A DNA stretch of 64,000 nucleotides from an uncultured Lawsonia sp. (GTDB taxonomy: Bacteria > Desulfobacterota > Desulfovibrionia > Desulfovibrionales > Desulfovibrionaceae), in assembly GCA_964538355.1 (NCBI GenBank), contig CAZIFC010000007.1, positions 5,924 through 69,923 of the forward strand, written 5' to 3'. The translations under genes were made by a program, and so were the position numbers. Shown piece after piece: positions 48,168 through 48,764 of the stretch (within the stretch, counting starts at the first letter, position 1; every line of letters starts with the position of its first letter). A model generated the notes under the pieces. The model was not told where the DNA came from. It worked only from the letters and a program-made list of their open reading frames with translations, and ran no database searches.

Positions 48168-48764
48168 TCAGAGTGTTGAACTATTTTGCTTTAATTCAAG
48201 ATCTTTTACAGCTCTCCATTTTTGTTTTTCTTTTTCAAATACCTCTTGGTGTCTTTCCATATAAATTTTATTACGGTAAAAAAGAAAAATAAATGAAATA
48301 ATAGCTATAAAAATACATATAATTATATGTTTGATATTTGATTTTGAATCATTTATGCATAAAAATAGACAAATTATAATTAATATATAATATATAAACC
48401 ACGTACTCAAATATGAATTTTCTTTTTTACAATCTTCATCTTTATATTTATCTCTATATATTGACAAACGTTTTTCTCATAGAAAATTGTATTCTGAGAA
48501 ATAAATAATACAGTATGATGCGCTTCTCCATATATATAATGATATATCATAGTCTAATAAGAAAAACAAAAAAATTAATGGAATTGGAGTTAAAAAAGAA
48601 AGAGGATTGACGTGTTCGTGTGATCATAGGTATGCAAGTATGATGCTGTATATACTAAATAATGTTGTTTTTAGCTTTGATTTTGAATCAAATAAATGTT
48701 GTATTTCTTCTCTTAAAATAATATATTCTGTTTTTGCAGATTCAAAATTATATGATGTTGGCAT
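48168..48764 (-). pseudogene. AT-rich membrane-protein ORF interrupted by two in-frame TGA codons
   Basis: ATG 48764 after AAGGAAG; one 198-codon frame with no TAA/TAG; TGA at 48626-48624 and 48479-48477. Confidence 0.7.

Follow-up and report, generated by a model that had tools for sequence, protein, structure and literature searches.

A capsule-locus membrane-protein gene interrupted by two in-frame TGA codons is probably a recent pseudogene in an uncultured Lawsonia

Why would a gene-sized open reading frame (ORF) in a bacterial capsule locus be interrupted by TGA codons and by no other stop? The question is raised by a 64,000-nucleotide stretch of an uncultured Lawsonia sp. (Desulfovibrionaceae; GenBank assembly GCA_964538355.1, contig CAZIFC010000007.1, positions 5,924 to 69,923 of the forward strand), referred to here as the window. 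Directly upstream of the capsule gene kpsC, the window holds an extremely AT-rich ORF of 198 codons with two internal TGA codons and a terminal TGA, after which the same frame runs on into kpsC. A first-pass annotation, made from the sequence, had offered three explanations: a pseudogene that suffered two TGG-to-TGA mutations, a gene of a donor whose code assigns TGA to Trp or Gly, or read-through that would give KpsC a membrane anchor. We conclude that the ORF beside kpsC is probably an ordinary pseudogene: a membrane-protein gene of the moron type, acquired horizontally and recently inactivated by nonsense mutations.

An open reading frame interrupted only by TGA

The ORF and the signals around it, in window positions, are the following.

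48168-48764, minus strand: interrupted 198-codon ORF, member of an unnamed family of ~200-residue proteins with four transmembrane (TM) segments (translation, homologs, alignments, AlphaFold2 model)
48764-48762, minus strand: ORF start codon, ATG (read in the sequence)
48626-48624, minus strand: in-frame TGA, codon 47, where TM helix 1 ends (homologs have Leu or Phe)
48479-48477, minus strand: in-frame TGA at codon 96, the W of a conserved WEKRL motif (homologs have Trp, TGG)
48170-48168, minus strand: terminal TGA, where homologs also stop (the C-terminus aligns with the ends of the homologs)
48776-48770, minus strand: Shine-Dalgarno-like AAGGAAG, 5 nt before the ORF ATG (read directly in the sequence)
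48765-48904, minus strand: AT-rich leader of the cassette, non-coding, containing a predicted promoter-like TTGCAA-17-TATAGT at 48849->48821 (consensus match)
48144-48167, minus strand: 24-nt spacer of eight sense codons (YDYLQQIK) from the ORF stop to the kpsC ATG, without a terminator-like site

Translation of the minus strand gives MPTSYNFESAKTEYIILREEIQHLF...ILAYL*SHEHVNPL...SEYNFL*EKRLSIYR...NSSTL*YDYLQQIK-MIILFQNK, in which asterisks are TGA codons and the last block begins kpsC. The ORF contains three TGG and three TGA codons and neither TAA nor TAG, its GC content is 23.1%, and it carries no frameshift. The first-pass description is accurate on these features, namely the exclusive use of TGA (two internal, one final) over 198 codons, the three Trp codons written TGG, the strong AT bias, the good ribosome-binding site and the eight sense codons that connect the terminal TGA (48170-48168) in frame to the kpsC ATG (48143-48141). 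It was also right that the program-made list of ORFs shows only the last half, which comprises the last 99 codons (48168-48467).

The run free of TAA and TAG spans 244 codons. In 5000 shuffles of the island, the longest such run had a mean of 69 codons and a maximum of 184, and the open frame is therefore not a product of chance. Each of the remaining five frames holds 5-15 TAA or TAG codons over the ORF span. The promoter-like hexamers upstream of the ORF are of a kind that is common in AT-rich DNA, and no terminator-like site was found between the ORF and kpsC.

TGA is the commonest stop codon of the host, ending 1078 of its 2376 long ORFs (45%), including kpsC and neuB. ARAGORN identified one tRNA-Trp(CCA) and one tRNA-Sec(UCA) in the genome and no further reader of UGA. 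The host reads UGA as a stop (code 11), and translation of the ORF therefore halts after 46 residues.

The ORF belongs to an unnamed family of membrane proteins

For database searches, the ORF was translated with TGA as Trp (query P0001), purely as a search device. An exhaustive phmmer/HMMER search of 1.84 billion cluster representatives returned 45 relatives at E<=1e-3, eight of them at E<=1e-10, the best of which (E 1.6e-41, 45% identity) pairs query residues 5-189 with residues 11-196 of 202. The 45 relatives, which are 135-262 residues long, align end to end. They correspond to no named family, and those with a named source, from Desulfovibrio piger, an uncultured Desulfovibrio and a Lachnospiraceae metagenome-assembled genome (MAG), are annotated only as 'hypothetical protein'. 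The family is patchy and rare, a profile search having detected it in 2 of 401 genomes of the host's own family. A word-indexed protein search with P0001 gave no relative, tblastn against phages and plasmids and megablast against Escherichia coli genomes gave nothing, and Pfam returned only a sub-threshold match to DUF2207_C, of the sort typical of TM segments. A search of viral contigs with the family alignment found no near-identical allele, either intact or broken.

Searched against the host genome, the family profile scores the ORF at E 1.1e-84. The conserved columns E13, Y14, E20, L58, Y84, E97 and W183 are kept in the ORF, and W96 is the second TGA. In leave-one-out hidden Markov models (HMMs), the read-through ORF scored 194-204 bits and the left-out intact members scored 150-224 bits. 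Under the host code, however, the uninterrupted frame of the family is broken in the ORF by two in-frame TGAs, which makes it a pseudogene member of the family.

The AlphaFold2 model of P0001 (m6946288c6411), computed from a 49-sequence alignment, has a predicted local distance difference test (pLDDT) score of 91.7 and a predicted template-modelling score (pTM) of 0.83. In this model a long N-terminal helix runs into TM1 and is followed by TM2, a short amphipathic helix that contains WEKRL, TM3, TM4 and a C-terminal amphipathic helix. Four of the helices are hydrophobic and of membrane length, in agreement with the several TM segments seen at first pass. A Foldseek search of the model against PDB and BFVD gave no match at E<=0.001, and the modelled family may be a new small membrane fold.

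Relatives carry sense codons at both internal sites

Codon 96 is a nearly invariant Trp in the 49 sequences of the family and is TGG in all five homolog DNAs. At codon 47 the family has Leu, and occasionally Phe, Ile, Tyr or Ala; the five DNAs read TTA, TTA, TTA and CTT (Leu) and TTT (Phe). All five homolog genes are intact under table 11, and at the position of the terminal TGA they stop with TAA (four) or TAG (one). Given these codons, each internal TGA is one substitution away from a normal codon. By this comparison, just one of the two internal TGAs, that at codon 96, replaces a Trp codon, and codon 47 is a changed Leu codon. The first-pass proposal of two TGG-to-TGA hits is thus upheld as to the pseudogene and as to codon 96, but not as to codon 47; the conserved Trp that it looked for in homologs as a sign of decay or of a foreign code is likewise present at codon 96 and is replaced by Leu or Phe at codon 47.

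Approximately 28-29% of the single-base nonsense paths that start from the inferred intact gene lead to TGA, so that under simple mutation models the probability that both stops are TGA is ~0.08. The shared identity of the two internal stops is unremarkable.

Intact relatives occupy single-gene islands in prophages and mobile DNA

Each homolog context that was profiled shows a sharp single-gene island of 25-32% GC in DNA of 44-72% GC. The following islands were mapped, at 25-30% GC in DNA of 60-72% GC.

L004, 5830-6600: AT-rich island of the homolog
L008, 5900-6650: AT-rich island of the homolog
L013, 6001-66xx: AT-rich island of the homolog
L016, 6001-66xx: AT-rich island of the homolog

In one set of contexts (L004-L007), a Desulfovibrio prophage, the homolog stands alone on the opposite strand, flanked by gp45 and gp46, which are baseplate genes of Mu type. 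In another (L016-L018), it lies among tail-like genes and adjoins a VgrG3-like protein. A third set (L013-L015) has the homolog downstream of a BrnT toxin pair (BrnT/BrnA-like), beside a giant MuF/helicase/Eco57I ORF, and the fourth (L008-L011) has it in an island with HsdR_N, Bro-N, DUF3800, an endonuclease, an HI1420-type antitoxin and UmuC. The upstream regions of the homologs share no conserved promoter.

Morons are genes that differ in GC content from their neighbours and behave as independent units within late operons. Their founding example is gene 15 of HK97, a tail-operon gene whose product, gp15, is a small inner-membrane protein of superinfection exclusion (PMC3594210). The GC contrast of the homologs and their independent placement inside late gene runs match this definition. 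The window copy shows the same GC contrast, but it lies between an IS5-family remnant and kpsC rather than between conserved genes inside a (pro)phage. These contexts suggest that intact family members may be prophage- or island-borne membrane proteins that act against incoming phage, by superinfection exclusion or by abortive infection. Its unannotated ~200-residue proteins with four TM segments are always encoded in sharp AT-rich single-gene islands, which lie in high-GC gut bacteria, either in the tail regions of prophages or on mobile islands. Given this context and a confident model that has no structural neighbour, the family may reasonably be regarded as a candidate superinfection-exclusion or defence protein of a new kind, and the intact members are the best ones to study.

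A probable recent pseudogene and its alternatives

The history that best fits these observations would begin with a horizontally mobile AT-rich cassette consisting of a single gene for a ~200-residue inner-membrane protein with four TM segments. Its insertion site would have been the variable stretch of the host's capsule locus immediately before kpsC, adjacent to an IS5-family element. Two independent single-base substitutions would then have created UGA codons, one at Leu codon 47 and one at the conserved Trp codon 96, and with termination after 46 residues no functional protein would be made. The in-frame relation between the ORF and kpsC would be a coincidence. Since no terminator precedes kpsC, the surviving AT-rich DNA may still feed transcription into kpsCS after the insertion sequence (IS) cut the operon. 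The ORF shows no decay beyond the two stops, in that its conserved columns and HMM score are retained and no frameshift, TAA or TAG has appeared; this suggests that inactivation was recent or, less likely, that selection still acts on a leaky gene. As part of the pseudogene reading as a whole, we consider recent inactivation likely.

Several observations weigh against this reading. The absence of decay besides the stops is equally expected from selection on a gene that is still translated, and both stops are the leakiest codon, an outcome with a prior of only ~0.08. The anti-phage role proposed for the family is drawn from genomic context, and PADLOC and PHROGs searches of P0001 gave no match, as was also the case for Pfam, PDB and BFVD. 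Moreover, a near-identical allele was found neither in a protein search of genome and metagenome contigs nor in a scan of metagenome and viral contigs with a DNA pattern whose stop position read NN, and exact look-ups of two ORF fragments and of KpsC gave no match.

The first of these points leads directly to the alternative of a leaky functional gene, in which low-frequency read-through of the two UGAs by tRNA-Trp would keep a potentially toxic membrane protein at a trace level (stop-codon attenuation). UGA is in general the leakiest stop codon. Both internal stops are UGA, the frame is otherwise undecayed, with its conserved residues and an HMM score like that of intact members, and the ribosome-binding site is intact. 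However, the yield would be very small, as the frequencies of two successive read-throughs multiply. For release factor 2 (RF2), a U or G at the +4 position is not among the weak, especially leaky contexts. The two stops here are followed by U and G (UGAU and UGAG), which are not weak contexts. Read-through would furthermore insert Trp at site 47, where relatives have Leu or Phe, and none of the intact relatives examined contains an in-frame TGA, while a chance probability of ~0.08 that both stops are TGA is not compelling. We give a leaky gene only a slim chance.

An equally slim chance attaches to a sequencing or assembly artefact, in which both sites would carry sense codons and the gene would be intact. 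The assembly is a draft in 68 contigs, coverage of AT-rich islands is often poor, and the rest of the gene is pristine. Such an artefact would nevertheless require two independent substitution errors, each of which makes a stop within 150 bp, which is unlikely, and there are no homopolymer indels.

A slimmer chance is left for a functional variant in which the UGAs would be tolerated or even selected because near-cognate read-through by tRNA-Trp would supply only traces of the membrane protein, throttling an effector of phage defence or abortive infection whose full expression would be toxic. Such a throttle would explain why the frame has not decayed further. A variant of this idea, in which the throttled cassette was copied from a donor with TGA as Trp, is still less likely.

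It appears very improbable that the gene came from a donor in which TGA means Trp (code 4) or Gly (code 25) and that it became unreadable in its new host. The extreme AT-richness, the TGA exactly at a conserved Trp and the frame without TAA or TAG are features that such a donor would produce, and low GC and a TGA at a conserved Trp are also what the ORF has in common with the TGA-as-Trp genes of Mycoplasmatota (NCBI table 4). However, no code-4 relative was found; the relatives are intact under table 11, and those with a named source come from the code-11 taxa Desulfovibrio and Lachnospiraceae, so the taxonomy of the relatives points away from an alternative-code donor. Site 47 has Leu or Phe in the relatives rather than Trp, and Gly fits neither site. 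The third TGA is the gene's own stop, where relatives have TAA or TAG, and three Trp codons of the gene are TGG. In addition, the host lacks a UGA-decoding tRNA-Trp, and the other AT-rich islands of its genome are without ORFs interrupted only by TGA. The first-pass proposal of a donor with a different code is thus not borne out.

The proposal of a membrane anchor for KpsC fares worse still. It concerns the following gene.

46116-48143, minus strand: kpsC, 675 residues, two Capsule_synth domains, ATG at 48143-48141 (Pfam; N-terminal alignment)

Under this proposal, read-through or recoding would fuse the membrane protein to KpsC as an N-terminal anchor. The frame is continuous from 48764 into kpsC and is interrupted only by TGAs, and kpsC has no Shine-Dalgarno sequence, as the first-pass annotation had noted. 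However, neuB in the same locus has an identical AATAAAA-ATG start without a Shine-Dalgarno sequence (48144-48150 for kpsC; 51980-51986 for neuB), the in-frame relation has a prior of 1 in 3, and three UGA read-throughs would be required. From the ATG at 48143, the N-terminus of KpsC (MIILFQNKTSHIPFIESFLED...) aligns with the starts of four relatives, none of which is extended: those of Bilophila G014 (MGRIFFSKKITQIPYLDMFF...), a Mailhella MAG (MFIFSAPLKRIPHLQTFLL...), the Bilophila MAG G010 and B. wadsworthia. The N-terminal motif is similar in these four relatives, an I-P-x-hydrophobic core being common to G014 and Mailhella, and Pfam detects only the two Capsule_synth domains. A fusion is barely conceivable on this evidence.

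Finally, a selenocysteine reading of the TGAs is excluded in practice, because, although the genome has a tRNA-Sec(UCA), no hairpin resembling a selenocysteine insertion sequence (SECIS) follows either internal TGA (the 62 nt after codons 47 and 96 fold at -0.4 and -4.2 kcal/mol, with shuffle z of +1.07 and -1.64, so that neither stands clearly apart from shuffles), an Rfam search gave no match, and the relatives have Leu and Trp at the sites rather than Cys or Sec. The negative answer on an alternative code, on recoding and on a KpsC fusion removes a false lead on code variation in a gut Desulfovibrionaceae genome.

The capsule locus and its AT-rich island

The ORF sits in an island of ~850 bp (about 48055-48960) with 19-28% GC across 48100-48999 and flanks of 52-60%. 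The host genome (2.62 Mb) has a GC content of 59.7%, and this island is the largest of its islands below 32% GC. Further islands below this value lie on contig C7 at 70000-70500, just past the end of the window, on C3 at 0-600, on C4 at 16500-17200 and on C22 at 3500-4100, and some of them are partly N-masked. None was seen to contain a long ORF interrupted only by TGA, and the idea of a systematic TGA oddity across the AT-rich islands of the genome was rejected on these grounds.

The neighbouring features are listed below.

44890-46119, minus strand: kpsS, 409 residues (Pfam Capsule_synth, E 1.7e-68)
48905-49697, minus strand: degenerate IS5-family insertion sequence that abuts the cassette, its transposase broken across frames (DDE_Tnp_1 fragment, translation)

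The stop codon of kpsC is a TGA that overlaps the kpsS ATG. The IS retains an N-terminal ORF (MSRIRLNKKQWSKIQPHL...) and a typical C-terminus (...VERFFAWLDNFRRLATRFE), with several stops and frame breaks, and its DDE_Tnp_1 fragment spans profile positions 30-110 of 200. It is present in a single copy, the only other match in the genome being 138 bp at 78% on contig C24. Beyond the IS lie a NeuC-like epimerase, NeuB, an aminotransferase and a dehydratase of the nonulosonic-acid pathway, which the IS splits from kpsCS. On the other side, a tRNA-Leu(GAG) gene (42388-42472) is followed by a phage-type integrase (42756-44015, plus strand) that adjoins kpsS, and this tRNA gene may be the integration site of an island that carries the entire capsule locus.

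The first ~30 codons of kpsC (about 48055-48143) are AT-rich, as is the 5' end of the G014 kpsC (L022 1276-1650), and in the closest KpsC relatives (77% identity) the match begins only at residue 33-35. Conserved kpsCS and the variable, low-GC portion of loci of this kind meet at the AT-rich 5' end of kpsC, and these observations suggest that recombination junctions of variable capsule cassettes lie inside it. A motif, CCTCTA(A/G)AA / TAGAGGATG, recurs at 48080-48091, 48902-48910 and 49688-49699, that is, at both ends of the IS and in kpsC codons 17-21. The 9-12 nt match between the IS end and these kpsC codons was considered as a cassette boundary and dropped, since about four such pairs are expected by chance per 2 kb; the motif is probably meaningless.

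Comparison with known systems

The ORF resembles the ordinary nonsense-mutation pseudogenes of accessory genes in bacterial genomes, in which stop substitutions have arisen in a dispensable acquired gene whose frame is otherwise intact. There is no difference of substance, and the sole oddity is that both stops are TGA (~8% expected).

The intact relatives WP_462399741.1 (Desulfovibrio piger), WP_302736443.1 (uncultured Desulfovibrio sp.) and the metagenomic P0002-P0008 match the ORF over their full length, with identities of 31-41% in the alignment and 34-46% over the part matched in the search. They share with it an N-terminal helix with EY..LR.E, the LILAYL of TM1, IW..A.YC, WEKRL and a C-terminal W..VK, as well as size and an extreme AT-richness relative to the host. 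They differ in being intact and in lying in prophage tail or baseplate runs or in mobile islands, whereas the ORF has two nonsense codons and lies in a capsule locus beside an IS remnant.

The comparison with HK97 gp15 and other morons concerns the manner of working only. No sequence or structural similarity of the family to HK97 gp15/YebO or SieA was detected, and, unlike morons, the window copy is not in a prophage, nor was a terminator found downstream of it. What the two have in common is a single gene of deviant GC content, which in the homologs lies on the opposite strand to the tail or baseplate genes that flank it, and a small inner-membrane product, as is predicted for this family, whose homologs also occur outside prophages.
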